The notes below the pieces were generated by a model. The model did no database searches, was not told the origin of the DNA, and saw only the letters and a list, made by a program, of their open reading frames with translations. The translations under genes were made by a program, and so were the position numbers. This document shows, one piece after another, positions 13,965 to 34,437 of a stretch of DNA of 64,000 nt; the first letter of the stretch is position 1; each line of letters begins with the position of its first letter. The stretch covers positions 320,001 to 384,000 of the forward strand of contig CAWBWI010000002.1 of assembly GCA_963792585.1 (NCBI GenBank), given 5' to 3'. This stretch comes from Candidatus Eiseniibacteriota bacterium. Lineage in GTDB: Bacteria > Eisenbacteria > RBG-16-71-46 > CAIMUX01 > VGJL01.

Positions 13965-14543
13965 ATGCGAGGTCGCCGGGTTAGAAACTTGCTGGAACCT
14001 GCCGGCATCTTGATGCTCCTGCCGCTGCTTGCGGGATGTGCCGGGAGCGATGCCTTCATCCAGCCGAATGTCGATTTCAGCCACATTCACCGCTGCGCCA
14101 TCCTGCCGTTCCAGAATCTCACGAACGACGGCTTCGCGGATGAACGACTGGAATCGATCTTCCTGATGGAGGTGCTCCAAGACGGCTCCCTTGCGATTGT
14201 CGATCCCGAGGAAACTGTGAGCGCGATGAATGCGCAACACGTGACCCCCGGCGTCGCCCCGACCCCCGAGCAGATCATCTCGCTTGGAAAGACTCTATCG
14301 GTCGACGCGGTCTTCCTGGGCAGCGTCGAGGAATACGGGCTACAGAGCCAATCACGCCAGCAGACCTATGGGGTCACGGCCGTGTTCAGCATGGCGGAGA
14401 CCGAAACGGGGAACCTGATCTGGAGATCTCAGATCCATGTCGACGGATCGTCGATCTGGAAGCGGATCTTCGGCGGCGAATCGGCGAGCCTCTATGACAT
14501 CTCGAAGACTGCAGTGCGTCGAGCCCTGGCGGACCTCCTTTGA
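13965..14543 (+). CDS. Lipoprotein, CsgG/DUF799-like fold
   Basis: Lipobox LLAGC; AILPFQNLT, LGKTLSVDAVFLGSVEEY, ETETGNLIW. Confidence 0.8.
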   Translation: MRGRRVRNLLEPAGILMLLPLLAGCAGSDAFIQPNVDFSHIHRCAILPFQNLTNDGFADERLESIFLMEVLQDGSLAIVDPEETVSAMNAQHVTPGVAPTPEQIISLGKTLSVDAVFLGSVEEYGLQSQSRQQTYGVTAVFSMAETETGNLIWRSQIHVDGSSIWKRIFGGESASLYDISKTAVRRALADLL

Positions 14544-15619
14544 GCCGTTGGTCATTCGGATCTTGGGTGTTCCCGGCTCTGGCCGTTGCCCTATTCGTCG
14601 AGATGTCGGTTCCCATGTACGCGGCGGCGCAGGAGTCCGGATCGGGCTCGCGCGTCGCCGTGATCCTATTCCTCTCCTACGAGGCTGTGGGCCAGCCCCC
14701 CCCGGATCTCGGGAACCTACAGGGGGAGTGCTGGGATCGCCTCGCGACCGGGGTGCACGAGCTGGGGCACAGCGAGGTCTCCCGATCCGAGATCGGGCCC
14801 TCCGTACGGCGCTGGGCAGTCCGGACGGATCTGAGCGTGAGCGGGGCGTTTCTCGAAGAGATCGCAACGGAACTGGACGCAGGCGTCCTTCTCGTCTGCA
14901 ATCTCACGATCTATGGGGACCGGCTGCTCCTGTGCGGACGCAGCGTGGTGACGGCCACGGGCAAGATCACATGGGCGGACATCCAGGAGCTGCGACTCCC
15001 TCCGGGGTCCGGATCCGGGCAAGACAGCCTCGAATCCCGATGGCGCGATCTGGCCACAAGCGCGTCGCACCGACTGCTCGGCAGCTGGGATGCCTATGTC
15101 TCGCCCGATGATTTCTCTGGAGATCTCTTTGTCGTGCCAGTCAGGACTGTCGGCATGGAACTGATGGCGGGACGTCTGGTCCAATCCTGCCTTCTCCGGT
15201 CCCTGATGAGGTCGCGTTGGCGCATCGAGGAGCCGGGCGTCACCTTCTCGCGGCTCCAGGAGGCCGGGGTGGATCCACGTCGACTCGATCGGACCTCCCG
15301 CCCCGCCCTGATCGCCGCGGGCGTCCACGGTGCGGTTCTCGTGTGCGATCTCGTGGCCGGCGATAACGCATCACCTGCCAGGACGGCGCCGTCCCCGGAA
15401 GGAAGCAGTCCCGTGCAGCCCCAGTCGACCTTCCCGCCGTCCACGCTCTCCATGAGGCTCCTGAATGTCGAAACCGGGGTCGTGGTGTTCGCCGCCACCG
15501 AGTGGCTCGAGATGCGGCAATCATATGGTCTCTTCGGAACACTCAAAGACGCGTCGCCCATGAGGCGTGTCCAGCCGGTGGCCGACCGGTTGGTGCGCGC
15601 GGCGACACGGAAAGGATAG
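14540..15619 (+). CDS. Secreted protein, possibly two tandem CsgG/TolB-N-like domains
   Basis: Signal peptide; two repeats ending VVTATGKITWA and LLNVETGVVVFA; overlaps upstream stop. Confidence 0.6.
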   Translation: MSRWSFGSWVFPALAVALFVEMSVPMYAAAQESGSGSRVAVILFLSYEAVGQPPPDLGNLQGECWDRLATGVHELGHSEVSRSEIGPSVRRWAVRTDLSVSGAFLEEIATELDAGVLLVCNLTIYGDRLLLCGRSVVTATGKITWADIQELRLPPGSGSGQDSLESRWRDLATSASHRLLGSWDAYVSPDDFSGDLFVVPVRTVGMELMAGRLVQSCLLRSLMRSRWRIEEPGVTFSRLQEAGVDPRRLDRTSRPALIAAGVHGAVLVCDLVAGDNASPARTAPSPEGSSPVQPQSTFPPSTLSMRLLNVETGVVVFAATEWLEMRQSYGLFGTLKDASPMRRVQPVADRLVRAATRKG

Positions 15620-15629
15620 GACCTTCCCG

Positions 15630-17318
15630 ATGTCACGAACTGCCGGCATGCTTTTGCCGCTCCTTGCGCTGGTTCTGGGTACTGCACCGCTTCCCACTGC
15701 AAGCGCATCTGGCGTGGCAGGGGGAACACGCCGGTTGGCCACGGTCGGTTCCGACACGCTGACCATCGCCGACTTGGACACCGAGGTCCTGGCCTCGCTC
15801 TCGAAGGCAAAGCAGCAGATTCTGCCGGATCTGAATCCGGAAGATGTTCTGAGACGGCTGATCCAGAACAGGCTCTTGGAGCAAGAGGGCTATCGGATCG
15901 GCGCCGATCAGGCTCCCGCCGTGCGCAACCAGGTTCACGAGCTCATTCGCCTGAAGAGCGTCACCGCGCTCCTCGATTCGATATCGGCTCCACCCGCGGG
16001 CATGGCCATGGCGAGCCCGGACAGCATGGTTGGTATGGCCGGCACGTTGCGGCGCTACTCGCACATTCTTGTCAAGGAGGAGGCGCTTGCAGGGTCCCTC
16101 CGGGACAGCGTCACGAACGGGGTCCCATTCGCGGATCTCGCCAGACGGCACTCCCTGGATGGAGCGGCCGCGGCCGGCGGGGATCTCGGCTATGCCGCGG
16201 AGGGCACTTACCTCGACGACTTCGAGAAGGCCGCCGGGCAACTCGCTCTCGATCAGATCAGCGGGCCGGTCCACACCCAGTTCGGCTGGCACCTGATCAA
16301 GTTGACCGGGAGCAAGGCGGATACTCTGAAGTCGAGGGCGATGGCCGAGGCGATCATCCAGGCGCGCGAGGGCGAAAGGCGCACCGCCGCCGTGGGGCGC
16401 TACGTCGATTCCTTGAAGACGGGCTACGGGGTGACGATCAACGACTCCCTTCTCGCGAGTCTCGACTACGCGTCGAAGGACCCGGTCGTGCAGAAACAGC
16501 TCCAGTCCAGCCAGGCGGTTCTCACAGTCCTCCCGACGGGGAAACTCACAGTCCGCGGGCTCACCAGGAATATCCGTTTCAAGTACTTCCACGGCCTCGA
16601 GGATCGGGACGACGCCCAAGCCATCCGGGATCAGATGTTTCACGAGTGGGTCACCGAGGCGCTCTTGAGCCACGAGGCGGAGAAGCTCGGCTTCGATCAC
16701 GAGCCGGGGATTCTCGCTGCCGCGCGTATGGAAGAGCGTGTCCGGATCCGCGAAGAGGTCTTGGACAGCATCTTACGGTTCGAGTTCAAGCCCTCCGAAG
16801 ACGAAGTCCGCGCCTACTACGCAGATCACATCAGTGAATTCGTGCCCGAACCGCGGGTGAAGGTGCAGAGCGTCCTCACCAAGGACGCCGAGACCGCCAA
16901 GAGGTTTCGCGATGAGATGGATCGGGGCGCGGGGCTCAAGTGGTTGGTCGATCGGTCGCCGGGCGAGGTCGACTCCGTCGCCCCTTTCCCCACGGGTTGG
17001 ATCGATGCGGATGCGATCGGTCTGAAGGTCCGGCAGCCGGTCAAGGGTACGGCGGTCGGCCCGATGGAGCTTCCAGGAGGCTGGGCTCTTGCCGAAATCC
17101 TCGCAGTGGAGCAGCCCGAACCGACCAAGTTCGATGACTGCAAGGACAAGGTTGTTCAGGCCATGAAAGGGCTTCGCGTTCGCCAGGCACTCCAGGACGC
17201 ACTGTCGCGTCTGGAGTCGGGGACCGAAATTCGAGTCGAACAGGGCGCAAAGGACGCGATCGCGGAACGAATCAAGCAGTTCCAGGATTCGCTATCGGAA
17301 GGAGGCGAGAGCAGATGA
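15630..17318 (+). CDS. PpiC/SurA-type peptidyl-prolyl isomerase
   Basis: SHILV..FADLARRHSLD..GGDLG..ISGPVHTQFGWHLIK rotamase signature plus a second degenerate domain; signal peptide. Confidence 0.9.
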   Translation: MSRTAGMLLPLLALVLGTAPLPTASASGVAGGTRRLATVGSDTLTIADLDTEVLASLSKAKQQILPDLNPEDVLRRLIQNRLLEQEGYRIGADQAPAVRNQVHELIRLKSVTALLDSISAPPAGMAMASPDSMVGMAGTLRRYSHILVKEEALAGSLRDSVTNGVPFADLARRHSLDGAAAAGGDLGYAAEGTYLDDFEKAAGQLALDQISGPVHTQFGWHLIKLTGSKADTLKSRAMAEAIIQAREGERRTAAVGRYVDSLKTGYGVTINDSLLASLDYASKDPVVQKQLQSSQAVLTVLPTGKLTVRGLTRNIRFKYFHGLEDRDDAQAIRDQMFHEWVTEALLSHEAEKLGFDHEPGILAAARMEERVRIREEVLDSILRFEFKPSEDEVRAYYADHISEFVPEPRVKVQSVLTKDAETAKRFRDEMDRGAGLKWLVDRSPGEVDSVAPFPTGWIDADAIGLKVRQPVKGTAVGPMELPGGWALAEILAVEQPEPTKFDDCKDKVVQAMKGLRVRQALQDALSRLESGTEIRVEQGAKDAIAERIKQFQDSLSEGGESR

Positions 17319-20300
17319 CCTGCGTGTACCGCATCCGGGCCTTGTTGCCGTTGGTCGCGGTCTCGATCCTGGTTGCGCTACTCGTACCCGCATCCGCTCT
17401 GTCATCGGATCGATTCAAGCAGAAGGAGTGCTTGGACTGCCATAAGGACATGTCCAAGCAGCTATCCGCCTCCAGTGCGCATGAGCCGTTCAAACGAAAG
17501 GAGTGCGAGAGCTGCCACAAGCCGCACGGAATCCTCGGTAAGTTGCTGCTGAAGGCGGAGGGCGCCGATCTTTGCACCCCCTGCCATCAGGGGATCGGCG
17601 CGGAGATGTCCGCCAAAGTGGTGCATGAGCCGCTAAAGGCCGGTGCCTGTACGACGTGCCACAACCCGCACGGCACGGGCAAGCGAGCGATGCTGACCGC
17701 TGACGGCGACAAGGCCTGCTTCGCATGTCATGACCAATCGTCCTTCGAGCGGCCGTACGTTCACGCGCCGCTGACGCAGGACGGGTGCCGGGCCTGTCAC
17801 TCGCCTCACGGCTCGGATCACGAGGGACTCCTGCTGCGAGATGCCCGTGAGCTGTGTATTTCCTGCCACAAGGCCGGATCCGAAGCTCCGCTCGAGCCAT
17901 GGGAATGTGGATGTGTCCACCGCAGATTGCGCCGGGTGCCACGATCCCCATAGCTCGACAAGCCCGAAGCTTCTGCGCGCCTCCGTCCACGCCCCGGTGG
18001 CCGGCCTGGAATGCGGTAATTGTCACACGATCGAGCCGTCGGGCAAGGCCACGCTTCTAGAGACGGGGCAATCGCTCTGTGAAACCTGCCATGACGTTCG
18101 CTCGGCGACGCCAAAGGTGGGCCATCCCCCGTTTGCCGAGGGAGCATGCACGGATTGTCATGCCGCCCACGGGAGCCCTTATCCAATGCTTCTGAAGCAG
18201 AGTGAGGAACAGCTCTGCTCCGGTTGCCACGACAAGGTGACGGCCGGGGCCGAGCACCCTCATCCTCCTGTGGCCGAGGGGAGATGCTCCGCGTGCCATG
18301 ACGCGCATGGGTCCGACCACCCTGCCATTCTCAAGGCGGAAGAGCAGGAACTCTGCTCCACCTGCCACTCGGACATGTCGCCGCAGTCGCACGCGAACCA
18401 ACAGACGCATGCGCCCTTCGTCAAGCAACCGTGCACGACCTGTCACGCCGCCCACGGATCGCGGCAGGCGTTTCTGCTGATCAAAGATCCCGGAGATCTA
18501 TGTCTATCCTGTCACAAGAGCATCCAGTTGCTCATGGCCTCATCCCATCCGCACACCGTGGTCGCGCAAGGAGAGTGTCTCTCCTGCCACGCCCCCCACT
18601 TCGCCGACAAGCCCGGGCTGCTGAAAGCTGAGAGCGGAGATCTCTGCGTGGGATGCCACAAGGGGCTCGCGGGCGAGCCCGGGGCGCCCGGCGTGCACTC
18701 CCCCGCGGCCGAGAAGGCGTGCCTGGACTGCCACGTCCCGCACGGGGGAGAGCAAGAGGCCCTTCTGAAGGCGCCGGTCAAACAGACTTGCGGGGACTGT
18801 CATGCGGATGTGAGTGATCCGTCCACCCGGCCCTACACGCACGCGCCCGTTGCCGATGGCAACTGCACAGAGTGCCATGACGCGCACCGTTCCGAACGCC
18901 CCGCGCTGCTCACGGCCGCGTCACCTGAGATCTGCCTGACCTGTCATTCGGATGTGATGCGGACCGACGGAGCGGTCTCGGTTCACTCTCCGAGCCAGGA
19001 TGACTGCCTGGTCTGCCATCAACCTCACGGCGGCAGCGATCCGACGTTCCTGCGCTCGGCTTCACCCGACCTGTGCCTGAAGTGCCATGATGAGGGCAAT
19101 CAGGAGTTCCGGCAGAAGCACCTCCAAATGGAGGGTCGGAAGATCGACTGCCTCCAGTGCCACGAAGGTCATCGGTCCGCAGAAGCCGGCCGTTCTTCAC
19201 GCCTACAGCCATCCTCCGTTCGATGATCGGACCTGCGACGTGTGTCATGCTGCCGACGGGTCCCCGATGCCTGCGAGCGAGACCTGCCTCAACTGCCATG
19301 GCGACCTCTCGGCGGCGAGCACGGGCGACAAGGTGCAACATCAACCATTCGCCTCCGGCGAGTGCACCGCATGCCACAATCCCCACGCCTCGAAGGCGGA
19401 GCACCTTCTTGCCGGGAGCGTCGGCCAGACATGTGAGTCCTGCCATGCGACCGCCGATCTCTATCCTGAACAGTCCCTGGCGCACACCCCTGTCCGGCAA
19501 GGCAGGTGCAATGACTGCCATTCCGGCCACAGCTCCAATCAAGCTGCCCTCCTGAAGCGCCCTGAGGGGCAACTCTGCACAGGCTGCCACGAGGACATTC
19601 GTGCCATCGTGGAGCAGGGAGTCGCTCACCAGCCAGTCTCCAAGGGCAAGTGCGATGCCTGCCATGATCCCCACGGCACGGCCCAGAGCGCGATGCTGAA
19701 GAACTCGGTGCCCGCTTTGTGCACAAGCTGCCACAATCCAAAGGAGGCGGCTCTTCTCGCCAGGCATGGCGGAATTCCCATGGAGGGGACCGATTGCCTC
19801 AGCTGCCACGATCCGCACAGGAACATCAAGAGCGCGAGGGCGACTGGGAGCGTCCACGCGCCGTTTGCCGGCGGGAGGTGCGGCGACTGCCACAAGGGGG
19901 CGACGACCGCGCTCCGTGCCACGGAGAAGACGCTCTGTCTCGGGTGTCACGCGGGCCTGGAGCAGGATCTCCTTCGCGACAAGACCCACAGTGCGCTCAA
20001 TGGTGACAAGCCGTGCACATCCTGCCACCGCCCTCATGCTTCTCCTGTGGCGAAACTGCTCGTCAAGCCCAACGAGTCCCTGTGCGCCTCCTGCCATCCT
20101 GATGAGGCCTCCGTGATCGCAAGTGCGGAGTACGCGCACCCCTCCCAGAACAAGGGCCGGTGCCTCGTGTGCCACCAGCCGCATACCCAGCCCCCGTCGG
20201 CGAGTTCGGGCGGGGGAGCGACCGAGGTCTGCTCCCAGTGTCATGACTTCACCAAGCATGTCAGCCACCCCATGGGGCCGGAGACGTTGGATCCCCGAAC

Positions 20301-20442
20301 CAAGCAGCCGGTGAAGTGCATTAGCTGCCATGCGCAGCATGGCTCCGGTTTCAAGTACTTCATGCGGGATGATCCATCGGGTCGCCTCTGTGTTCAGTGC
20401 CACACGGAGAAGATCCGGCAGGCCCGGCCACTAGGGAAGTAA
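17315..20442 (+). CDS. Very large multiheme cytochrome c (42 CxxCH), two +1 frameshifts near 17873 and 19190
   Basis: Signal peptide; 7+18+17 CxxCH motifs counted in three consecutive frames; repeating HxP..CxxCHxPH..LL..LCxxCH unit; 3128 bp = 3n+2 (~1041 aa). Confidence 0.88.
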
Positions 20443-20912: not shown

Positions 20913-21002
20913 TCTGGGAGCCCTCCTCGGACAGGAGGACCCCTTGAGATGGCGAGCGCTATCGATGGGTTTTCGGGATGGCTGGAATCAGCGTTCGGGA
21001 TG

Positions 21003-22374
21003 GGTTGTGGTTCTTAGATTGGTGTTTGGTCGCACTGCCGGCAGGGCGGTGCTCCGTGGTGTGGCACGCCCTTGGCCTCTCCTTCGCCTCGTGTCCAGAC
21101 GACGTACATCCCTCCACCAGGTCCATGGGACCTGCCGCCCACCCCATTGCCCCAACTCCGCCTGCAATTTCTACACACCCCGTCCCGATTGGCGCCCGGC
21201 CTACGACGGTTTCTTCCGTCGGCCTTCCGACGGGCGCCTCTTCCAACGCTTCCGATGCCCCCATTGCGGCCGCCGATTCTCGTCTCGAACCTTCGCCGCT
21301 GACTACTGGCTCAAACACAGGAGTCTCTTCTGCGACATCGCCCGACTTTCTGCCGAAGGACCCGGTCTCCGTCAGATCGCGCGTCTCCTCGGCGTCTCCC
21401 ACACGACCGTCCTGCGCCACATCGCCCGTGCCGGCCGTCACTGCATGCTCTTCCACCGTCAGATGCTGGTCGAGTACCGGACCGCAGAGCCCATCGTCAT
21501 CGACGGATTCGAGTCCTTCGAGTTCTCCCAGTACTTTCCCTTTCACATCAACCTCGCCGTCGATGCCCGGAGTTGGTTCATCTTCCACTTCACCGACAGC
21601 CCATTGCGACGCAAGGGGACCATGAGACCCGAGCAACGGCTTCGCAGGGAGCATCTGGAAGCCCAACTGGGCCGCCCCGATCCCAAGGCGATCGAGAAAG
21701 GCGTCTTCGACCTACTCCGGTCCGTTCTGGAGGATCCATCCTCGAGGAGCGACAGGGAGCAACTCATCCACAGCGATGACCATCCCGCCTATCGCCGCGC
21801 GCTCCTTCGCCTCCGCAGACTTCCGGAGTTCCCACAAGTGCGGCATCAGATCACTCCGTCGACCGAGCGTCGAACCACGCGCAATCCGCTCTTCCCCGTC
21901 AACCTGACCGACCTGCTCCTTCGACATGGTCAGGCCAACCACCGCCGGGAGACCATCGCATTCAGCAAGCGGCGGCAGGCGGCGATCGAGCGGCTGGCGA
22001 TTTTCACGGTGTGGCGCAATGCCATCAAGAGCCGGAGAGAGAAGGCACCGGGGGAGACCGCTGCCATGGCCGTTGGGATCCTATCGAGGCCTTTGAGGTG
22101 GGCAGAGGTCTTTGCGGATCGGACATTCCCCAGGAAAGAAGTCCTACCCGGGCCCTGGTGGTCCTACTACTGGAGGCGGGTCCGAACGGTGGCGCTGGGT
22201 CCAAGTCAAAGGGGACACCAGCTCAAGTATGCATTCTGAGAAGAACTGGAGTGGTTCGGCACGGGCGAAGCCGGACCACTCTCCGCTCAACTTCCTGTCA
22301 CGGTCGTTTCCGCAAGAGCCGAAGGGGTGGCCGTTGCTTCGTCAACTGCATCCACCAATCTCCGCACCACAACC
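21003..22374 (+). mobile_element. IS1-like insertion sequence, 1372 bp, 9-bp target duplication
   Basis: Terminal IRs GGTTGTGGTTCTTAGATTGGTG / GGTTGTGGTGCGGAGATTGGTG; TTCGGGATG at 20994-21002 and 22375-22383. Confidence 0.88.
21061..22239 (+). CDS. Transposase (Zn-ribbon, HTH, DDE-like)
   Basis: CPNSAC..QRFRCPHCGRRFS; GLRQIARLLGVSHTTV; DGFE, SDDHPAY, HRRETIAFSK; start uncertain. Confidence 0.8.
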   Translation: MARPWPLLRLVSRRRTSLHQVHGTCRPPHCPNSACNFYTPRPDWRPAYDGFFRRPSDGRLFQRFRCPHCGRRFSSRTFAADYWLKHRSLFCDIARLSAEGPGLRQIARLLGVSHTTVLRHIARAGRHCMLFHRQMLVEYRTAEPIVIDGFESFEFSQYFPFHINLAVDARSWFIFHFTDSPLRRKGTMRPEQRLRREHLEAQLGRPDPKAIEKGVFDLLRSVLEDPSSRSDREQLIHSDDHPAYRRALLRLRRLPEFPQVRHQITPSTERRTTRNPLFPVNLTDLLLRHGQANHRRETIAFSKRRQAAIERLAIFTVWRNAIKSRREKAPGETAAMAVGILSRPLRWAEVFADRTFPRKEVLPGPWWSYYWRRVRTVALGPSQRGHQLKYAF

Positions 22375-22608
22375 TTCGGGATGCCCGGAATCGGTGTTCG
22401 GGATGTCCGGAATCACCGTTCGGCATGCCCGGAATCTGCGTTCGGGATGGTCCGGAATCCCCAGAGGGAGATGGCCGAGTGTAGGACCTTCCGCTCGAAC
22501 TCCGCCGTAGATCGTTGACGCCCGGCCTCGGTCAATGCATCGTTTCCGTTTCCAGAGGGAAACTCACAGGTCCGAACGCCGCGACCGCACCCTTGCCGAC
22601 AACCGAGT

Positions 22609-22640
22609 GAAAAGAAGGAGGGGGCCTCGGGGCCCCCTCC
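22609..22640 (-). terminator. Rho-independent terminator after the omcS-like gene
   Basis: Perfect 10-bp stem GGAGGGGGCC/GGCCCCCTCC, 4-nt loop, then TTCTTTTC on the minus strand. Confidence 0.85.
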
Positions 22641-22706
22641 TGAACGCACACTCAGGGAGACGATTCGGCTGGAGGAGTTACATCTCCTCCACGGAACTCG
22701 TCTCGC

Positions 22707-23811
22707 CTACGGGTTTGGGTTGCCCTCGTCTCCGAGGTCCTTCGCGTGGCACTTGTTGCAGAGCGACCTCTGATTGTGGACGAAGGTGTACTGATAGTAC
22801 TTGTTCGTTGCGTCGTTGGCGCCGACTCCGCCGTCCGTGGACTTCGGGTGGGATTCGGACATGAAGTCCGTGTCGAAGTCCCAGCGGCCGACGTCGTCGA
22901 ACGCCGAGGCGTGGGCCCTGTGGCAGCTGACGCACATGACTTGATCGACGCCCGTCGGACCGGTCGTGTAGTTCGTGGCGTCGACGGTCTCGAGGTCGAC
23001 GTTGACGGCCTCGAACGGAACCAGACCCCAGTATGCCGTCGACACATCGCCGCCAGTGGGATCGTCCGTGCTGACGTACGCATTGTAGTTGGCCGCGATC
23101 GTCGATCCCATGTCGCCCTCGGGATGGACGAAGTTGTTCGTGTTGTCCGAGTGGAAGTTCGCGTGGCAGTTTGCGCACCATTCGGACATTCCGTTCTTGT
23201 AGACCGTGTGCTCGGCGTTGGTCTCGTTCCCGCCGCCACCCACCATCGTCCGCCGGGAGTTGCCCTTGGCGAGAGGCTGATCGCTCGCGAAGTCGTAGCG
23301 CGTGCCGTCATAGACCGGTCCGAATTCACTGCCGTACAGGAGGCGGAAAGCGGTCGTTTCCGTGCGGATCGTGGCAGCTGGTGCAGGACAGCCTGGACGA
23401 GAGGAAGTCGCCGCCGGGTGCGTGGGTCAGGGTGGCGTCCGCGGCCAGGTCGTTGGCCGGCGAGATGATGTTGTGACCGTGGCTGTCGCCGGTGCTGGTC
23501 TTGGTGCCGTGTTCATTCCACGTGTAGGTCTTGGTCAGCCAGTAGAAGTCGCCGCCGGGCCCGTAGCCGGCACCGCCGTAGAACTGCCCGTAGGCGGCAT
23601 GGCAGTTGAGACACGTGTCGCTGCTGTTGCCGTACTTCAGCAGGTACGCATGACCCTCGGGGTGGTTAGGGTCGACGGGCTGGCCGTTCTGGCTGTTGTG
23701 CATGGTATGGCATCCCTGGCAATAGGCCACGCCCCCGTCGTGGAAGGCGCTGGCGGAGCCGGCGTAGAATGCCAGCATCAGCAGTGCCAGGAACAAACCG
23801 AAGAACCTCAT
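22707..23811 (-). CDS. omcS: OmcS-family hexaheme cytochrome c (nanowire-type), one +1 frameshift near 23350
   Basis: Signal peptide then FHDGGVAYCQGCHTMHNS; CLNCH; PGGDFYWLTKTYTW; GHNI; APGG..CTSCHDPHG; GMSEWCANCH; CVSCHRAHAS; QRSLCNKCHAKD; GGAGG RBS; 1105 bp = 3n+1. Confidence 0.92.
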
Positions 23812-23880
23812 TAGTAACCTCCATTTCGCAGGACCTGATCGATCAGTGACGGAGATCTGTCTTGCACTCTCGCTGCGTTT

Positions 23881-24895
23881 CTACGGACTCGGTTGCGCCG
23901 CGACCACCCCCTCCCTCCCGGAACGGATCTCCCGTTCCACCTTGCCGGCGACAACCGGCCGGAAACGATCGTTGTTGGGTTCTGCCGACCCAGTGGTTGT
24001 GAATCGAAGCTGCTGGATTCTGCCTTCAAGCCCCTGGGCAACGTAGATCAGTCCGTCGGACGAGGAAGCGATGGCCGCCGGATAGTAGAGGTCTTGTGGA
24101 CCCTTGCCGAACGTCCCGAATTCCGAAACGAACCCGAAGTGCTCGTCATAGAGCAGAATGACGTGTCTCATCCGGTCCAGCACGGCGATCGACCCATCCG
24201 GGCAGAAGGCCACGCCGACTGGAAAACCGAGACGCCCCCTGGCTCCGCCCGGCGTGCCGAACTCCATCTCATGCTCCCCTTCGGCGGACAGGACCTGGAT
24301 CTGCCGAAGCCCAGGGAAGGGCAGCAGTAGTCCGTCCGTCGGGGGCCTCCCCGGGTTTGCCGAGTGCGATCAGCTCTCCGGATGGAGAGTCCTTCAGGTC
24401 GCGCTTCCAGAGAAGAACCCCGGTCTCCGCATCGTGCTTTGCGAGATATCCGTTCGTAGGATCCGTCGTCACGTAGTCGCCATCACGGGTCACCAGCAGG
24501 TGCTCCGGTGTCCACAGATCCGTTACCGGTTCGGGAGCAAATGGGAGCAGCTGGCCGAAGAAATCCAGCTTGCGAATCGTCCGGCCGCCCGCCGGCCTGC
24601 TATCCGTGCAGACGAATCCGCCAGACGCTTCAACGCAGATGTCGAGAGGGTCGGCAAGCCCTGCGGCCTGCTCGGTGCTGAATAGATGCACGTTTCCTCT
24701 GTCGAGCAGGTGCCCTGCGTTGCCCGTCGCGTCCGTCACGCAGACGATGCCGTCGGTCCCGACCGTCACGGAAACGGGGAGCGCGATCCGGGAACCTTCA
24801 CACGGAAGGCTCAGCGTGGAGCTGTACTCAAGACTGGGAGTCGCCTGAGCGCTCACCAGGGCACACCATGCGAACGTGCCGTAGAGCACCGCCAT
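23881..24895 (-). CDS. NHL-repeat beta-propeller protein, one frameshift near 24331
   Basis: Signal peptide; PVSVTVGTDGIVCVTD, FPVGVAFCPDGSIAVLD, FGTFGKGPQDLYYPAAIA repeats. Confidence 0.82.
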
Positions 24896-25444
24896 GCGCG
24901 CGAGGTGGACGAACGTGTGCCCGCTACAAGAAAGTTTCCTCGAGGGTATTCCCATGAAGGATGGCACCGGGCCGCTCGAGCACACCTTCAACCGAGAACC
25001 CCTCGAGGAAATCTGATGCGTCCGACGCTGGCGGGGCGCTCCGTATCGAAGAGACGAACCTGTCGCCCTCGTGCGCGAGGGCAACCCACCTTCCGACTCT
25101 GAGACGGACCAACCCGACCGTCGGGACATGAATACTCCCCACAAGATGCGCAACACGGACCTTGGTCTTCAGGACCCCAGAACGGCCGACCGAGATCTCA
25201 AACTGCTCATATCAGAGTCTAGATATTGTGAAGATTTTCGTCAATCGTTTTATGAATGCAACAGTCCTATGTTTAGTTTTTCAACGACATGTGTAAATCG
25301 TAAGCATGATATAGGGTTAGACGACTCAGAGGGGTCTTCACCTAATCCACGGGGCCCCGAGAACCTCGATATGCCTCATCGAAATATCGATGGAGGCGAG
25401 GAAGGCGCCATCCGAGGTCCTTCGAGGGGACGTAACTGGGCGGA

Positions 25445-26447: not shown

Positions 26448-27149
26448 CTATGGGAGATCGAAGAACAGAATCTCCGCCGGAGCGTCGAGCGTGTGCACGC
26501 CGACTTTCGGCTCTTCCTCGATCGCAGCGGCGTCTCCGGCACGGAGCTCCGTCTCACCGACCTGGCATCGTCCACGGGCCACGTGCAGCCATCCATGTCG
26601 ACCCGAGCGGAGCGACAGATCGAGAGTCGACTCCGCGTCGAGCAGGGATGCATAGACGTCGGCATCCTGGTGGATCGTCACCGACCCGTCCTTGCCGCCG
26701 CCGGAGGCGACCAATCGCATCCGTCCGCGCTTGTCGTCGTCGGAAAAGCGCTTCTGCTCGTACTCCGGTGCAAGCCCCTTCCGGTCGGGGAAGAGCCAGA
26801 TCTGCAGGAAGTGAACCTGCTCCGATTGCGAAGGATTGAACTCGCTGTGGAGCACGCCGGTCCCGGCGGACATCCTCTGCACGTCGCCGGGGCGGATGAT
26901 CGAGCCGTTTCCCATGCTGTCCTTGTGCTCGAGCGCCCCTTCAAGGACGTAGGAGATGATCTCCATGTCGCGGTGTGGATGTGTGCCGAACCCCCGGCCC
27001 GGCTGGACCCGGTCCTCGTTGATCACGCGGAGCACGCGATACCCCATATGTTCGGGGTCGTGATAATCAGCGAATGAGAAGGTGTGATACGTGTTGAGCC
27101 AGCCGTGATCGAAATGGCCACGATCTTCTCCGCGTCGAATGCGGATCAT
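26448..27149 (-). CDS. Pirin family protein (YhhW-like)
   Basis: HGWL..HTFSF..LRVINED..GFGTHPHRDMEI..MSAGTGVLHSEFN..LQIW. Confidence 0.95.
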   Translation of the reverse strand: MIRIRRGEDRGHFDHGWLNTYHTFSFADYHDPEHMGYRVLRVINEDRVQPGRGFGTHPHRDMEIISYVLEGALEHKDSMGNGSIIRPGDVQRMSAGTGVLHSEFNPSQSEQVHFLQIWLFPDRKGLAPEYEQKRFSDDDKRGRMRLVASGGGKDGSVTIHQDADVYASLLDAESTLDLSLRSGRHGWLHVARGRCQVGETELRAGDAAAIEEEPKVGVHTLDAPAEILFFDLP

Positions 27150-29290
27150 CAGTACCTCCGTATCTCTCGCGCCGCTGCGAGGATCTTCCCGGTATCGGGG
27201 AGGATCGCATCCTCGAGCGGCGGGCTGTACGCATAGTGGGTGTCTGGAGTCGTCACCCGTACGATCGGCGCATCGAGGGCGTCGAACAACTCCTCCGCGA
27301 CGCGCGCCGCGATCTCGGCGCCGAGGCCCGAGAATCGGCGGTCCTCGTGGACGATCAGCAGCCGGCCGGTCTTGCGGACGGAGTTGCGGATCGCCTCCAT
27401 GTCGAGCGGCTTGAGGGTCCTCAGGTCGACGACCTCAGCATCGATTCCCTCCGCCGCGAGCGTCTCCGCCGCCTCCATGCAAAAGGAGAGGGTCGGGCCG
27501 TAGGTGACAATGGAGAGGTGAACCCCTGGGCGCCGAATCGCTGCGACCCCGATCGGCACCACGTCCTCCACGGCAGAGAGGTCGGCCCGCTCCCGTCGGT
27601 AGAGATACTTGTACTCGAGGAAGATGACCGGATTGTCGTCCCGGATCGCAGACTTGAGGAGGCCTCTGGCGTCGGCCGCGGTCCCGGGCGCGAGGATCTT
27701 GAGTCCGGGGGTCGAGAGGAAGAACGACTCGACGTTCTGGGAATGGAAGAGCCCGCCATGGATCCGCGCTCCTGACGGTGCCCGGATGACGAGACGGGGG
27801 GCGACCCGTCCAGAGTGACGGTAGCTCATCGTCGCCGCGGTATTCACGATCTGATCGAATCCGCACGTGATGAAGTCGGCGAACTGCATCTCCGCGACCG
27901 CGCGCATCCCGACGATCCCGGCGCCGACGGCGGCGCCGACGATCAGGGACTCGCTGATCGGGGTGTCGATCACCCTTTCCTCGCCGTACTTCTCGATCAG
28001 CCCCTTGGTCACTCCGAAGGCGCCGCCGAGGGCCCCGATGTCCTCGCCCAACAGGATCACGTTCTCGTCGCGTTCCATCTCCTCGTCCAGGGCGCGACGG
28101 AGCGCTTCGATGTAGGTCGTACCCTCCTTCGCGCGGATCGCCGGATCGGCCCCGGCCGTTTGATCCCAGTGCATCGTTCCGTCGGGGATCTCCGCGCGCA
28201 CGGGGAGGCCTCCTGCGGACTCGGTCGGACCGCTCGTCCGGCGCGGTGGGATCGGATCGACCGGCGGACCGGCGGGGACCGTGTTCGGGTTGCACCAGAT
28301 CGCCTCGAGAGCCTCCTGTGGGTCGGGGAACGGGCTCGCCTCTGCAAAGGTGATGGCCCGATCGGCGATCTCTCGGGACTTCGCGCGCGTCTCTTCCCGC
28401 ATGGCGGGGACGTCGTGGCCGCGCTTGGCGAGGTGCAGTTCGAAGAGCTCGATCGGATCGCGGCCCTCCCACTCGACGAGTTCTTCTTGCTCTCGATAGC
28501 GGGCTGGATCATGTTCTGAGTGACCGTGGATCCGGTAGGTGAGGCACTCGATCAGCGTGGGCCCCTCGCCGGCGCGCGCGCGCCGGGCCGCCTCCTCGGT
28601 CACGCTGAGGACGCGGAGCAGATCGTTGCCATTGACCCGAACGCCCTTCATTCCATATGCCTCTGCGCGCTCAGCCACGGTCTCGACCGGCATCTGGAGC
28701 CGGGTCGGGGTCGAGTAGGCGTAGAAGTTGTTCTCGCAGAGGAAGAGGACCGGCAGCTTGTGGATGCCAGCGAAGTTCAGCGCCTCGTGGAAGTCGCCGC
28801 GACTCGAGGCCCCCTCGCCGAAGAGGGCCACGGATACATTCGGGCGTCGCCGGATCTTGAACGCGAGCGCCACGCCGGTCGCGACCGGAAGGGTTGCTCC
28901 GAGCATGCTGGTCGCGCCGATCACCCCTTTGCCGGGATCTCCCGTGTGCAGGAACGAGTCTCGGCCGCCGGAGAGCCCGTCCCGCCGGCCCAGCAGGCCG
29001 GCCATCAGAATGCCGGGATCGATGCCGCGTAGGATCGGTACGCCGAGATCACGGTGGAGCGGAAAGATGAGATCGCCGTCCTGCAGAACGTGACAGATCC
29101 CAACCTGGATCGCCTCCTGCCCTCGTCCGGAATAGGCGCCGCCGACGATCTTCCCCTGCTTGTGCAGGATCGAGACCCGGTCATCGAACTCGCGCACGAG
29201 GCAGAGCGCCTCATACAGCTCGCGATCGGGGCGGGGTGCGGACGTTCGGGGAGCGCCGGTGGTCCTGCCCGCCTTGCCTCTCGATGCCAT
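27149..29290 (-). CDS. 2-oxoacid dehydrogenase E1, fused alpha/beta subunits
   Basis: GQEA; TPP motif GEGA..ENN; YRIHGHS; LGEDIG, DTPISE, EMQFADF, DLRTLKPLD. Confidence 0.93.
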   Translation of the reverse strand: MASRGKAGRTTGAPRTSAPRPDRELYEALCLVREFDDRVSILHKQGKIVGGAYSGRGQEAIQVGICHVLQDGDLIFPLHRDLGVPILRGIDPGILMAGLLGRRDGLSGGRDSFLHTGDPGKGVIGATSMLGATLPVATGVALAFKIRRRPNVSVALFGEGASSRGDFHEALNFAGIHKLPVLFLCENNFYAYSTPTRLQMPVETVAERAEAYGMKGVRVNGNDLLRVLSVTEEAARRARAGEGPTLIECLTYRIHGHSEHDPARYREQEELVEWEGRDPIELFELHLAKRGHDVPAMREETRAKSREIADRAITFAEASPFPDPQEALEAIWCNPNTVPAGPPVDPIPPRRTSGPTESAGGLPVRAEIPDGTMHWDQTAGADPAIRAKEGTTYIEALRRALDEEMERDENVILLGEDIGALGGAFGVTKGLIEKYGEERVIDTPISESLIVGAAVGAGIVGMRAVAEMQFADFITCGFDQIVNTAATMSYRHSGRVAPRLVIRAPSGARIHGGLFHSQNVESFFLSTPGLKILAPGTAADARGLLKSAIRDDNPVIFLEYKYLYRRERADLSAVEDVVPIGVAAIRRPGVHLSIVTYGPTLSFCMEAAETLAAEGIDAEVVDLRTLKPLDMEAIRNSVRKTGRLLIVHEDRRFSGLGAEIAARVAEELFDALDAPIVRVTTPDTHYAYSPPLEDAILPDTGKILAAAREIRRY

Positions 29291-29448
29291 CGATTGACCT
29301 CTCTTTCGTCGGCGGCCCATCCGCTGGACTTGGAAGTCTAACGTCCGCGCCCCCGACTTGCATCCTCCCGGTCATCGGGCGCAAAGCCGAAGTCATGGGG
29401 GTAGGCGGTCTTGCCGATCATACGTCCGGGGGGTACGATCCGGCGCGA

Positions 29449-32400
29449 ATGACCACTGAAGAAGCCTGCCGCGCCATCGAATCCGAGTTCTCCGTCGCGC
29501 TCGGGAATCCGGATCGCGTTGCCGTGGCTTGTGGAATCCTGCGGGAGGGGCTCCGTGGCGGGCTGGAGCCCGAGTCCCTCGTCCGCCTGACCCCTTTGCT
29601 CGAAAGGCGCTCCGGCGCGATCCTTCGACCACTCTTCGAGCTCTTCGAGGATGCGGTCCGAAGGGCATCGGATCCAGACCCGATCCTGATCGGCATGCTG
29701 GGAGTGAGGGACGGGGACCTGAGCCGCAGAGTCCTCGATCGGACCCTCGAGCTGGGGGAAACGGGTCGTGCCGAAGTCGGGGAGGACTTCGCCTCCAGGC
29801 TTGCCGAGACGGTCGAGAGGGAGGGAAGTCCCCTCGTCGACGCGAATTCCCTCGCGAAGATCGGTCGAATCCTGCGAATCGCCTCCTGGGTGGAGCCCCG
29901 GCCCGGCCTCGAGCCGTGTGTGGACCTGTACCTTCATGCCTCCACGCGCTCCGTGCGCCGACTTGCCGCGCGGCTACTCGACAACGAGGCTGCGCCGCCG
30001 CCGAAGCGGGTCGAGGCGATGCTCGGGCGCGAGGCGTACCGGTTCCTGGCCCCCTATCTGGCCTACGCGCAGGCAACCCATCTGGATCTCCTCGAACTCG
30101 CGGGAAACGGGCGTCTTTCCGATCATCTCCTTGAGGACTTGGCCTCTGCGGAGGTGATTCTCGGTGAGCGGCTCCTGCGTGAGGTGATCGTGGCGGCCGG
30201 CTGGGCCCGGCTGAATCTAGGCATCGAGGTGCGCGAACGGGTCGGGCTCAGCGTGGACGGCTCGTTCCCTTTGGCCCTCTCTCCTTCCGAAGCGAAGCTG
30301 ATCGAGTCTTGCGCGGGGGTTCGGCGGACCTGGCGGCGTTTCCTCGTCCTCGTCCATGGAGGTGGTGTCGGGGGAGAGACGCCCGGCGTTTCTGCGGACA
30401 GTCCCGTGCGCCGCTTTCGGGCCTACAACCTGGCGCATGCCGAGGCCCTAGGCGAGATCCTGAGTGTGGAGCCCCTTTCCAAGGAACGGATCGAGCGAAT
30501 CGTCACCCTGTCGGATCGCCTCGTGGAGGACTTCGTTTCCCTCTTCTCCGGATTCGACGAGGAGGCGGCAGACCTGCCGAGTGCCTACGCGCCGATGCGC
30601 CGGGCCGTGCTCGAGTCGGTCGCCGCGTACTCAGGCGGCGCGCCTCCGTCCAAACTGACCCGGCTCGTGCAGATGTTCGAGGACCCGCGATCGCTTACCG
30701 AGGTCCACACCCTGCACGGTTTGAAGCGCTACCTTCACCAGAAGGGACTGAAGCTCGGCTTTCGTCTCGTCGAGACGGGGCGCGCGACGAATCGGACCGT
30801 CGATCTCCTGCTCGTCGGATCCGAGAAGATCCAATCGATCGTACGGAAGATCCAGTACGTCGACTTCGAGCCGGATGAGGACGATGGAAACGAGGGGGCG
30901 CGTGTTCCGTATCCAGTCCAGATCGTCGCAGAGGGAATGGGACGACACATTCTCCACGACGCCACCTCCTTTCCGGACGTGAAGATCTTCTGCTATGGCA
31001 ATGAGGTCCACTACTACGCCTCCTACGGCACCCACCCCGCGTTCCTTCGGATTGACTTCGCTCCACCGGTTCGGGGAGGGATGATCGACCTTGAGTACTA
31101 CGGCGTGAGCAAGAATGACCTCGATCACCATCCGGCTCCTCAGCTCGATGCGATCCGGCTCTTCTTCCGGGGAATGGAATTCGACTGCACGGTTGCCCGC
31201 ACCCGGATCCATGCGCGCTACGACAAGGAGCGGGCGGGCGACCTCGGCGATCTCTGCGCGAAAGCCGAAGGACTCTTCCGACTCCTTCCCCTTCTCATGG
31301 ATATCGATTGGGTCATCGGCTCCCTCCATCTCGATGAGGAGGCGCGGGGAAAGGTGGCGGCCTCGTGGTGCGACTTCTTCCTTCGCTGGGGGGTCCTTCC
31401 GATCGAGCAGTTCCTGACAGCGGATCGACTCGGAATTCTCACGGGAGTCGCGCCCGATCCCGCCGGCGGGAATCCAATTGCCTGGTCGGGACGGGGAGCC
31501 TATCAGGACCGATTCTCATCGACCGCGCCCGCGCGTCTGGCGCTCGAGATGGTGAACGCTCTCGGGCGACATGGACTCTCCGAGGTCGTGCCGTTCGTGG
31601 ACACCGCCCCGCGATCCTTCGGCCAACTGACGCTTGAGAGGGACGTCCTTCGCCCGCTCCGGGATGCGGTCGCCCGCGGAGAGCTGCTCGAGGGGCCGGG
31701 CGGGCTCGAACCCGCCACGGGACGTTTCCGGCGCGACCATGAGGCCGAGAGGTTCGCGGCGCTCCTGCAGGAAGGCGGAGAGGGAATCGTCCTGGCAGCG
31801 GAACTCGCGCGGCTCATCGGAAGTATCGAACGGTCGATTCGGTTTCGTGCGACGGGAAATGTGAACGGGTACGAGGTCGCACGGGCTTGCCTGGAGCTTC
31901 GCGGCGAGACGGCGGCCGCCTATGTGCTGCGCGACCGAAGCGGGATGGCGCGGCTGGCCATCTTTGCCCGAGAGGGGCGGCTGTTCTCGTCGCGCGCATC
32001 CGACGGCGGCCTGTGGCGGTCCAATGGAACCATCGATGCTGTGCGGGTTGTCTCCCACCTCAGACGGGCGACCTACCTCTCCGCAGGGACCACAGTCGCG
32101 TCGCCGGAAGACGTCGACGCGCTGCGGGATCTCTTCGCGTCTCCGAACCCAATCCGCAGCGCCTCCCCGGTGCCGGGCGAACGCGTGCTCGCAGGGGTGC
32201 GAGCTGCGCCGGGGAGAGCCTCTGGACCGGCGGTCCTCGGGACGCTGGGCCGCACTCCCGCGGATCTCGAGGGGGCGATTCTCGTCTCCGCAAGCGTTCG
32301 TACCGATGACAACGCCTTCATCTATCACTCGGCCGGAATCGTCTCCACGGGCGGCGGAATCCTCAGCCACGCCGGTTTGCTCGCGCTGCAGTTCCAGAAA

Positions 32401-34437
32401 CCGGCACTCCTGATCGACGCGGGCTGGGATGAGGCAGGGCGCGCCCTGGTCTACCGCTCGGGGGAGTACGAAGAGGAGCGCTCCAGCAGGGGAGCATTCT
32501 CGTTTGCGGCGAGAAGGAACCTGCGCGAGCGGGAGGAGCGAATCGTCGACGGGGACATCCTCGAACTCGATGTCGAAGAGGGATTGCTCCGCAATCTGGG
32601 CAGGGAACCCGACGCCCTCGCCCTCCACGAGGGACTTCGTCAGATGAACCTGGCGGGTCGCTCGCAGTCCCAGGCGACCGGAGACGCGCAGTTGCTGGCC
32701 CTGCGCGGCCAACGCCTGCGGGCCCGTCATCAACTCGAGCGTCTCTTCCGCCGCCTGCGGGATCCGAATCTCGCCCGTCATGCCGTTCGCGAGCTGTTCA
32801 CCGGGTCGGCCTCGACGGGCGGCGCGCGCGGCGAGTGCGCGGCCCTGGTCGTGCTGCTGCTGGAGAATCGATCCGTGGCCGACGCGGCAAAGGACTGTGT
32901 GGCGGGCGTCCTTCGGGATCTGGAGGGGCGAGATCGGACATGTGTCGAAGAGGCCCGCACGCGCATCCCGATGACGACCGACCCCCATGAGGTCCTATCG
33001 CTCCGCCTCGATGCGACGCGTGCCCGAGAGCGTCTACGGGAGGCGCTCTCGATGGCGGCCGCGAGCGGGCTCGAGCAGGCATGGATTGGGGCCGGGGGAG
33101 AACCGTCGTCGGTGGATGCGATCGACGCTCTCGCGCGGGGCAGGTTGGATGCGATTCGGGAAGGTCTAATTCACGAGCTCAAGGCCGCGACCCTCGGACA
33201 TCTACGCAGGCACCTGCTGCGCAGGATCGGAACCCTCGACTCCGTGCTGGATGTTCCCGCGGCGGATGTGGGAGGACTCCTCGTCACCGCCCGTGAACTC
33301 CAAGCTGAAGAGAATCTGATGAAGGCCCGAATGGGAGACCGCGTGGTCCTAAGTGCCGGAGATGCGGGGCTCGAACTCGCGCCCCTGATCGGAATGAAGG
33401 CAGCGAACCTCTCCGAGATCGGCCGTGTCCTCGGTCCCGATGCGGTGCCCGACTGGTTCGTCGTCACGGATGCGGCGCTCGAGGCAATCCTCGATGTTCC
33501 GGTCGAAACAGAGGGGGGATCTCCTCGGCTGCGGGACGCGATCGACGAGATCCTCAGTCTCCCCGGGGCGAATGAGGTGCAAAAAGCCTCCCTGATACAC
33601 AAACTGTGGTCGAGCATCAAGATTCCGGAGCGGATCGAGAGGGCCGTCGCCGATGCCTACCGCCTCCTCGGGGCGCAGGATCCGCCGGAATCCGAGGAGG
33701 GCGCGGGCAGAACGCCGGTCGCCGTTCGCTCCTCCGGGCGGGAGGAGGACACGGAGAGAGTCGCGGGCGCAGGGGAGTTCGACACATTCCTCTTCGTGCG
33801 CGGGGAACGGGAGGTCCTCGACACCATACGGCGGGTCTGGAGCGGGCTCTGGAGCGAGCGCGCGATCCACAACCGCGCCGTCCTCGGGGCCACCGCGTTT
33901 GGATCGGGAGGTGGCGTTCTCGTGCAGAGGATCTGCTGGTCGAGGGTCTCGGGAGTTCTGACGACCATCAACGTGGGGGAGGGCCGGATGCGGGAGATGG
34001 TCGTCAACGGGGGGCTCGGACTCGGCGAGGGAATCGTCTCGGGAGAGGTTGGCGCTGATCAGGTCATCGTCGCGAAGGTAGAGGAGCCCGATGAGAGTCC
34101 CTTGCGCTTCCGCTATCTCACGAACGACAAACGGGAGAAAGTCGTTTTCGATCGCAGACGCGGACAGGGGACCGTTCGGGTCGAGACCCTGTACCATGAA
34201 CGCTTCCGGCCCGCCCTCGAGTACGTCGAGCTTTGCGAACTCGTCCGCGCCGCGACACGCCTCGAGCGCGTCTACGGCCATCCGCTCGACATCGAATTCG
34301 GAATCGAGGGTGACCGACTGCGGCTCCTACAGGCCCGCCCCGTGACCCGAACGGCGGCGATTCTGCGGGAGACGATCGACCGCCACCCCCTGTCCGCCCC
34401 CCGCACGGAGCGAGGCGAAGGGAAGGAGACACGATGA
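29449..34437 (+). CDS. Large dikinase-like protein: uncharacterised N-terminal region, phosphohistidine domain, C-terminal PPDK-type ATP-binding domain
   Basis: TGGGILSHAGLLA; IGMKAANL, VAVRSSGREED..AGEFDTFL, GLGEGIVSG, DIEFG..LLQARP; no pyruvate-binding barrel seen. Confidence 0.82.
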   Translation: MTTEEACRAIESEFSVALGNPDRVAVACGILREGLRGGLEPESLVRLTPLLERRSGAILRPLFELFEDAVRRASDPDPILIGMLGVRDGDLSRRVLDRTLELGETGRAEVGEDFASRLAETVEREGSPLVDANSLAKIGRILRIASWVEPRPGLEPCVDLYLHASTRSVRRLAARLLDNEAAPPPKRVEAMLGREAYRFLAPYLAYAQATHLDLLELAGNGRLSDHLLEDLASAEVILGERLLREVIVAAGWARLNLGIEVRERVGLSVDGSFPLALSPSEAKLIESCAGVRRTWRRFLVLVHGGGVGGETPGVSADSPVRRFRAYNLAHAEALGEILSVEPLSKERIERIVTLSDRLVEDFVSLFSGFDEEAADLPSAYAPMRRAVLESVAAYSGGAPPSKLTRLVQMFEDPRSLTEVHTLHGLKRYLHQKGLKLGFRLVETGRATNRTVDLLLVGSEKIQSIVRKIQYVDFEPDEDDGNEGARVPYPVQIVAEGMGRHILHDATSFPDVKIFCYGNEVHYYASYGTHPAFLRIDFAPPVRGGMIDLEYYGVSKNDLDHHPAPQLDAIRLFFRGMEFDCTVARTRIHARYDKERAGDLGDLCAKAEGLFRLLPLLMDIDWVIGSLHLDEEARGKVAASWCDFFLRWGVLPIEQFLTADRLGILTGVAPDPAGGNPIAWSGRGAYQDRFSSTAPARLALEMVNALGRHGLSEVVPFVDTAPRSFGQLTLERDVLRPLRDAVARGELLEGPGGLEPATGRFRRDHEAERFAALLQEGGEGIVLAAELARLIGSIERSIRFRATGNVNGYEVARACLELRGETAAAYVLRDRSGMARLAIFAREGRLFSSRASDGGLWRSNGTIDAVRVVSHLRRATYLSAGTTVASPEDVDALRDLFASPNPIRSASPVPGERVLAGVRAAPGRASGPAVLGTLGRTPADLEGAILVSASVRTDDNAFIYHSAGIVSTGGGILSHAGLLALQFQKPALLIDAGWDEAGRALVYRSGEYEEERSSRGAFSFAARRNLREREERIVDGDILELDVEEGLLRNLGREPDALALHEGLRQMNLAGRSQSQATGDAQLLALRGQRLRARHQLERLFRRLRDPNLARHAVRELFTGSASTGGARGECAALVVLLLENRSVADAAKDCVAGVLRDLEGRDRTCVEEARTRIPMTTDPHEVLSLRLDATRARERLREALSMAAASGLEQAWIGAGGEPSSVDAIDALARGRLDAIREGLIHELKAATLGHLRRHLLRRIGTLDSVLDVPAADVGGLLVTARELQAEENLMKARMGDRVVLSAGDAGLELAPLIGMKAANLSEIGRVLGPDAVPDWFVVTDAALEAILDVPVETEGGSPRLRDAIDEILSLPGANEVQKASLIHKLWSSIKIPERIERAVADAYRLLGAQDPPESEEGAGRTPVAVRSSGREEDTERVAGAGEFDTFLFVRGEREVLDTIRRVWSGLWSERAIHNRAVLGATAFGSGGGVLVQRICWSRVSGVLTTINVGEGRMREMVVNGGLGLGEGIVSGEVGADQVIVAKVEEPDESPLRFRYLTNDKREKVVFDRRRGQGTVRVETLYHERFRPALEYVELCELVRAATRLERVYGHPLDIEFGIEGDRLRLLQARPVTRTAAILRETIDRHPLSAPRTERGEGKETR

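Follow-up and report, generated by a model that had tools for sequence, protein, structure and literature searches.

A gene for a hexaheme c-type cytochrome of the OmcS family lies on the minus strand at positions 22707 to 23811 of the window, that is, of the whole 64-kb stretch of DNA that was analysed. It starts with an ATG at 23811, 6 nt behind the Shine-Dalgarno sequence GGAGG (23818 to 23822, minus strand), and ends with a stop codon at 22707, which is followed by an intrinsic terminator-like hairpin of 11 pairs, 9 of which are G-C, with a T-rich tail (22616 to 22641, minus strand). A ribosome binding site and a strong terminator of its own had been described for this gene in a first-pass annotation, and both are found. 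The terminator scan yielded 5 sites with 3.6 expected, and the weight of the hairpin lies in its position and strength, not in the count. A promoter-like site at 25244 to 25216 was discarded, as one such site was found where 1.1 were expected, which is chance level.

The reading frame of the ATG at 23811 contains three CxxCH motifs (Cys codons at 23721, 23613 and 23385) and ends at 23326; three further motifs (Cys codons at 23177, 22934 and 22760) are located in the next frame, which runs to the stop codon at 22707. When read through with an X at the break, the gene encodes 367 aa, comprising a putative signal peptide of about 22 aa and a mature chain of 345 aa. It had been claimed that removal of one extra base near 23350 gives a protein of about 367 aa with six CxxCH motifs; length and motif number are both seen, and the extra base, which lies between heme motifs 3 and 4, is now placed at 23355 (minus strand). 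Third codon positions are of the coding type in both halves of the gene (GC3 of 0.88 and 0.86), and the CxxCH DNA pattern occurs 54 times on both strands of the entire window, with 2.25 occurrences expected and none of 100 shuffles reaching 54. The putative signal peptide, a hydrophobic 22-mer ending in A-S-A that was read by eye, precedes FHDGG, and the alignment to mature OmcS begins at residue 23.

Among 177635 PDB sequences, the read-through protein matched only OmcS (6EF8/6NEF; E 4e-55, 43% identity), whereby window residues 23-358 were aligned to OmcS residues 1-407, i.e. over the full length. A PDB search with each half of the gene product on its own likewise found no protein other than OmcS (E 1.9e-27 and 7e-27). 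The six CxxCH motifs follow the OmcS order after read-through, and five sequence motifs that had been quoted as typical of OmcS are all present and all align to OmcS. Searches of Pfam and NCBIfam gave no OmcS-specific match for the hexaheme protein, only models of paired CxxCH motifs. The OmcS fold was seen for a stand-in, the 82%-identical intact homologue P0005, and not for the window protein itself: the P0005 model (pLDDT 70, pTM 0.68) has a single PDB match at E<=0.001, namely 6EF8 (E 1.6e-18, TM 0.69); its confidence is low over residues 18-44, where His16 is located. The window hexaheme protein is a member of the OmcS family, as had been proposed from its motifs.

The neighbouring osc-type cluster and insertion sequence

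Positions 8619 to 20442 contain homologues of GSU2502, oscE, oscF, oscG, oscH, oscI and oscJ in the gene order of Geobacter. The osc block has been linked to folding and secretion of OmcS in the available text of PMC13194489 and PMC12977616, and it was proposed that OscH folds the protein, OscE, OscF and OscG secrete it and OscD shapes the wire (Shen et al. 2025, as cited in PMC13194489). The names oscE to oscH were put on GSU2499-2496 by gene order, starting from the named genes oscC, oscI and oscJ. All genes of the cluster lie on the plus strand. The first one (8619 to 11709), which contains one frameshift near 10900, encodes a membrane protein with spermidine-synthase-like and TPR domains and is homologous to GSU2502 (31%, E 5e-69). 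The OscE (GSU2499) homologue at 11754 to 13916 (24% over 747 columns, E 1e-22; start approximate) matches no Pfam or NCBIfam model and is a probable outer-membrane beta-barrel, judging from its sequence and from the available part of PMC13712944. It is followed by a probable lipoprotein homologous to OscF (GSU2498; 13938 to 14543; 30%, E 1e-26), by an OscG (GSU2497) homologue at 14540 to 15619, which was recognised by hhalign (probability 99.3, E 4e-20) and has no single-sequence match, and by a peptidyl-prolyl isomerase homologous to OscH (GSU2496; 15567 to 17318; 25%, E 6e-22). The last gene, 17315 to 20442, encodes a cytochrome with 42 hemes, in which OscI (26 hemes) and OscJ (16 hemes) are combined and which matches GSU2495/2494 at 31-34%. 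Its 42 CxxCH motifs (17429 to 20403) are assigned to a single gene, interrupted by frameshifts near 17880 and 19190, because a 42-heme ORF is found undivided at 8 of the 23 related loci. At 8 further loci (7 distinct clusters), the 26- and 16-heme genes are separate, one contains 25 and 16 hemes, and six have none in the DNA examined; the 26- and 16-heme proteins map to opposite ends of the fused protein.

Barrel, OscF, OscG, isomerase and the two large cytochromes are thus present in order, with the cytochromes fused, and the full eight-gene block GSU2500-2493 behind a GSU2501-type gene is not. OscC, OscD and the second NHL gene (OscK position) are absent from the cluster; a profile match to OscD on contig C6 was rejected, as it consists of short beta-propeller repeats outside any cytochrome cluster. 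A family profile search of the assembly retrieved no OmcS-like gene besides 22707 to 23811, and genes for cytochrome c assembly are present in the genome (4 matches over the cut-off).

Upstream of the hexaheme gene on the minus strand, an NHL beta-propeller gene homologous to GSU2505 (36%, E 5e-12) extends from 23881 to 25156; it has a frameshift at 24331, and its start is uncertain, probably near 24980. Between this NHL-omcS block and the 42-heme cytochrome gene lies an insertion sequence (21003 to 22374, plus strand) with 22-nt terminal inverted repeats, of which three further near-identical copies exist in the genome. The segment 22612 to 25352, which holds the block, is inverted relative to genome G003, and the match of a relative that is about 94% identical stops at both block edges. 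At 22612, the loose end of this relative is similar to the insertion sequence's terminal repeat, and an end of this element may abut the terminator there, too. A repeat with a 22-nt period is found on both sides of the insertion sequence (20965 to 21002 and 22368 to 22449) and recurs at 158.6 kb of contig C2 and 793.3 kb of C3; it may be the site into which the element inserts.

Positions 885 to 4355, immediately upstream of the osc-type cluster, hold two GcvH-like genes and genes for a 4Fe-4S protein resembling HmcB/HybA and a membrane protein resembling HmcC/NrfD; next come a kinase whose sensor part contains one CxxCH and a regulator of the sigma-54 type. This set is a candidate quinol-oxidising entry point; the gene order at 885 to 4355 is the same in G003, and it was not seen within the DNA examined for G015, G008 and G017. 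The sensor kinase and response regulator at 4307 to 7210 are not supported as orthologues of GSU2507/2506, since other genes in the genome match better. The region 27149 to 34437 encodes a fused E1 alpha-beta dehydrogenase subunit of 723 aa on the minus strand and includes a 1733-aa ORF (29236 to 34437), whose C-terminus looks PEP-synthase-like by eye. Other multiheme runs are located at 583-589 kb and 880-888 kb of C6, 860 kb of C3 and 209-211 kb of C2 (30, 15, 19, 16 and 13 CxxCH), and given these extra clusters, the genome may have further electron-transfer routes.

The break in the reading frame and the host genome

The break at 23355 is probably an artefact, because the ~94%-identical relative lacks this base and the assembly is prone to indels. 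One base is missing at 23355, and another at 24331 in the upstream NHL gene, in contigs spanning the hexaheme gene from three sequencing runs that hold the relative (X2, X9 and X16; 3 of 4 runs compared, possibly representing one campaign and one organism), and the relative is in frame at both sites. Without base 23355, the protein reads H-G-N-T-A-F-R, which is also what the intact homologue P0005 has, and HDPH and RLL are five residues apart, the same spacing as in all 83 close homologues that match this pattern. Slippage in the homopolymer of T near 23348 was rejected as the error, as the relative lacks base 23355 instead, and residues 153-155 of the 367-aa read-through (P0003) are therefore placeholders. 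In a search for reads of the same strain, no run contained half of the sampled words, and the closest one, X1, has a hole at 23278 to 23478, over the break. Contigs of the relative from RNA libraries (X9 and X16) were rejected as evidence of expression because genes and spacers are spanned alike.

The assembly comprises 5.4 Mb in 7 contigs and is 84% complete. With 199 queries from two relatives, of which 102 passed an identity and coverage filter, 17 of the 102 orthologues were found to be frame-shifted, amounting to 23 frame changes in 125 kb or 0.18 per kb; this value is a lower bound, as RecA, which is shifted at least twice here, scored zero. The RecA gene is broken in the assembly, and a 99%-identical RecA elsewhere is whole. 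The error rate is uneven, which counts against the artefact reading: all 23 frame changes fall into 84 kb of C1 and C2 (18 in 69 kb of C1; 5 on C2, all in the cluster that includes the hexaheme gene), and 0 into the 41 kb tested on C3-C6. Multiheme runs on C3 and C6 also change frame, despite 0 shifts among the tested orthologues. Neither half of the hexaheme gene shows an in-frame stop or a missing ligand, and the gene is very probably intact in the living organism. That the frameshift is a probable error had also been the view of the first-pass annotation, which further assumed that the gene would be hidden from automated annotation as two three-heme fragments; each frame indeed holds three motifs, but the family is not hidden, with a single six-heme ORF in 119 of 120 close homologues.

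Judged by RecA, the host genome belongs to Ca. Eisenbacteria, in agreement with the earlier suggestion of a non-Geobacter candidate phylum. Among the 120 RecA matches listed, 13 are named, and 12 of these are Ca. Eisenbacteria, the best named one being 91% identical and one additionally bearing a truncated label that begins 'Candidatus Late'; the remaining named match is from Rickettsiales at 79%. In GTDB genomes, the top cytochrome locus with an organism name is from Ca. Eisenbacteria as well. Of 201 genomes examined from the phylum, 10 carry the hexaheme gene; nine of these are from the window's own order, and the gene is present as a single copy in 6 of the 10. In the Geobacterales sample, 42 of 201 genomes carry it. 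Zixiibacteriota, Delongbacteria, Krumholzibacteriota, Ignavibacteria, Gemmatimonadota and Thermoanaerobaculia are among the sources of 34 related loci. The OmcS family is large and broadly distributed: of 7999 candidates that were scored, 5871 proved homologous, and matches at E<=1e-30 extend to 192 clusters built at 50% identity.

That an OmcS homologue occurs outside Geobacter is no novelty as such, and the novelty claimed for the gene had been overstated. Homologues have been described in Anaeromyxobacter and others (PMC10954620) and in Thermodesulfovibrionia (PMC8478452), the OmcS-like protein DA_402 of Desulfurivibrio alkaliphilus is supported by expression data and predicted to polymerise (PMC12545173), and an OmcS match at the level of a marker gene was reported for a Krumholzibacteria MAG (PMC7914226), each according to the available text of these papers; the accessible parts of two reviews also call OmcS homologues widespread (PMC12307469, PMC12954529). 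Among the papers listed by a literature search whose terms did not name the fusion, none came up with an omcS-osc locus in Eisenbacteria or a 42-heme fusion; Shen 2025 and Baquero 2023 may cover these. The window locus is a further member of a known, widespread family, located in a streamlined cluster.

Heme ligands and relation to the Geobacter paralogues

The omcS region of G217 served as OmcS reference: its 407-residue mature protein has the same two ends as the chain in 6EF8, and its genes are arranged like GSU2507-2493. Thirteen histidines of OmcS align with histidines of the window protein, namely the six proximal and six distal ligands and His247. The distal ligands of OmcS are His2, 16, 110, 147, 257 and 335; the window residues aligned to the twelve OmcS ligands are His2, 13, 16, 49, 91, 125, 128, 194, 207, 275, 278 and 333. 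The alignment, which was inspected for missing distal ligands, thus revealed that all 12 are kept, and the twelve are invariant in 106 close homologues. The inter-subunit ligand in OmcS was reportedly identified as His16 by Wang et al. 2019. In the window, mature His16, a candidate for the inter-subunit ligand, is encoded at 23698 to 23700 (minus strand); it aligns to OmcS His16 and carries the identical mature number, so that the earlier statement on its conservation is borne out. His16 is present in 72 of 89 family rows, in 119 of 119 close homologues and in 95 of 102 distant six-heme proteins, and seven rows of the ligand alignment miss His2 merely through trimming. All 12 Geobacterales genomes with a copy lacking His16 also hold a copy with His16 in the stretches fetched. 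As judged from these alignments, His16 is under selection and not automatic.

His16 is common to OmcS, OmcT, OscC and OmcJ, and its presence was rejected as proof of a filament, since none of the latter three is a known wire former. Many Geobacterales omcS clusters (L109-L124) contain a further hexaheme protein without His16; such a subunit is unable to provide the link and could serve as the cap or the anchor of a wire. Homologues from Zixiibacteriota (L019) and Ignavibacteria (L022) also have no His16, and no osc-type neighbours in the DNA examined, which suggests another use of the fold.

The window protein is 43% identical to OmcS, 42% to OscC, 42% to OmcT and 39% to OmcJ, and the alignment scores for OmcS and OscC are barely apart (575 and 555). 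In the best tree (88 rows, support 100), it groups with the other non-Geobacterales rows, outside all 57 Geobacterales rows. A constrained tree that joins the non-Geobacterales rows to the OmcS clade was not rejected (AU p 0.21, 35 rows). Both trees are quick searches, the first with one truncated row of 89 dropped and the second with 35 hand-picked rows. Because the best trees place it outside all Geobacterales paralogues, the window protein appears to be their co-orthologue rather than a demonstrated orthologue of OmcS. The C-terminal end CNKCHAKD is of the OmcS/T/J type and not of the OscC type, and an NHL gene of the GSU2505 type immediately precedes the hexaheme gene, which is also the arrangement of omcS in Geobacter; the hexaheme gene therefore holds the omcS position and not the oscC position.

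Proposed filament formation, alternatives and known systems

The best overall explanation, to which we lean, is that the window gene encodes an exported hexaheme cytochrome of the OmcS family that forms a filament. The precursor would cross the inner membrane, and six c-type hemes would then be attached in the periplasm; folding would be aided by the OscH-type isomerase, and the protein would exit through an OscE/F/G barrel complex. In OmcS, 11 of the 12 ligands come from the own subunit and one, that of heme 505, from the neighbour, according to the available text of PMC6584659. Likewise, eleven histidines of the window protein would ligate hemes within the subunit and His16 would reach heme 5 of the next one, giving a head-to-tail filament of identical subunits with one continuous heme chain; electrons would be brought to it through the periplasm by the fused 42-heme cytochrome. 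Since the genome has no second OmcS-like gene, the simplest partner of His16 would be a further molecule of this protein. The osc route is the likely way of export, and polymerisation is favoured with less assurance; conduction is predicted, and by analogy the default assumption is that electrons would pass outwards to minerals or to partner cells. A wire is best supported by the osc-type cluster next to the gene and by the gene's presence in one copy in this assembly, both of which the first-pass annotation had overlooked.

The main alternative, which we regard as rather unlikely, is that the exported protein, instead of building a long filament, acts on the OscE barrel as a lone subunit with a terminal or adaptor function or as a short oligomer, a role that is also open for OscC (GSU2501); His16 would then ligate a heme of the partner or close the short oligomer. 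This would fit the available text of PMC12977616, according to which OmcS is the only one of the four Geobacter paralogues known to polymerise and whose authors consider that the gene block may have served secretion before wires arose. Several points count against a wire: His16 occurs in the three paralogues not known to form wires; OmcS and OscC are nearly equally close to the window protein, which is positioned outside the Geobacter radiation; the protein lacks two OmcS segments and has a C-terminal tail, which may bear on the subunit contact; the P0005 model is of low confidence around His16; and OscD, the proposed wire shaper, is missing from the cluster along with OscC and the second NHL gene. 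However, the OmcS-type end and the omcS-type position behind the NHL gene speak against a mere adaptor, as do the lack of any other OmcS-like subunit in the assembly to take His16 and the outcome of the AU test, which does not reject a link to the OmcS clade.

Next in rank comes a real frameshift in a cluster that is decaying in this strain, which is improbable. It would account for the five shifts in four cluster genes, the insertion sequence inside the cluster and the inverted NHL-omcS block with its gene order altered compared to G003, and no reads of the same strain were found over the break. A natural frameshift is known from oscJ of one Geobacter genome: the oscJ gene of G217 (locus L105) is out of frame near residue 290 with 10 motifs left, which fits the frameshift at base 868 of oscJ listed in the accessible part of PMC13194489. 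Shifts are, however, equally common outside the cluster on C1 and affect even RecA, both gene halves are free of stops and lost ligands, and the relative is in frame at 23355 and 24331. A mis-binned contig or a recent transfer of the locus from Desulfuromonadia, for which the patchy occurrence in the phylum as compared to the Geobacterales sample could be cited, is highly improbable and largely refuted: RecA points to Ca. Eisenbacteria, a long branch separates all Geobacterales rows, and G003, which belongs to the same family as the window genome, has the nearest orthologue (81%) and the same cluster with a flanking glucokinase gene. The check for a Desulfuromonadia origin of the contig hence came out against it.

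Returning to the filament, it is conceivable, if a little short of probable, that some Eisenbacteria make OmcS-type wires with a minimal kit consisting of a compact hexaheme subunit and a fused 42-heme feeder, without OscC, OscD and OscK. If a filament is formed here, polymerisation would be the old state of the family, because the subunit branches outside the OmcS/OmcT/OmcJ/OscC split, and OscC and OscD would be dispensable for it. A single protein of the OmcS family is known as a wire former. Which paralogues form wires and what the first role of the companion cluster was are questions raised in the available text of PMC12977616, and a genome that has just one OmcS-like gene, and whose companion cluster is reduced, would be a clean test case for them. 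The short subunit and the smaller number of helper genes would also be convenient for heterologous expression, and an uncultured lineage from sediments and bioreactors would be added to the candidates for long-range electron transfer.

Among the homologues outside Geobacter, DA_402 and the Krumholzibacteria match were proposed to act in iron-oxide respiration, according to the available text of the respective papers; as far as their descriptions go, they differ from the window gene in coming from other phyla and, in the case of DA_402, in having expression data. OmcT, OscC and OmcJ have the same ligand set including His16 at 39-42% identity, and none is known as a filament former (PMC12977616, in the accessible text). 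In contrast to Geobacter, these paralogues are absent from the window genome; OscC furthermore differs by its C-terminus and by its place before oscD. OmcS of G. sulfurreducens (GSU2504, 6EF8/6NEF) shares with the window protein the six ordered CxxCH motifs, the 12 His ligands with His16, the CNKCHAKD end and the NHL gene directly upstream, and its fold recurs in the model of the relative (TM 0.69). Mature OmcS has 407 residues and a span of 396 from the first to the last motif, compared to 345 and 325 in the window protein, which lacks two segments of about 17 and 34 residues and has an additional C-terminal tail of 9 residues; the short length was rejected as a special feature, as it equals the median of 31 non-Geobacterales rows (span 306-343). 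The cluster has the same order of homologues as the Geobacter osc cluster GSU2502-GSU2493, plus that of GSU2505, but OscI and OscJ are fused, OscC, OscD and the second NHL gene are missing, and the NHL-omcS block follows the osc cluster in inverted orientation, beyond the insertion sequence.
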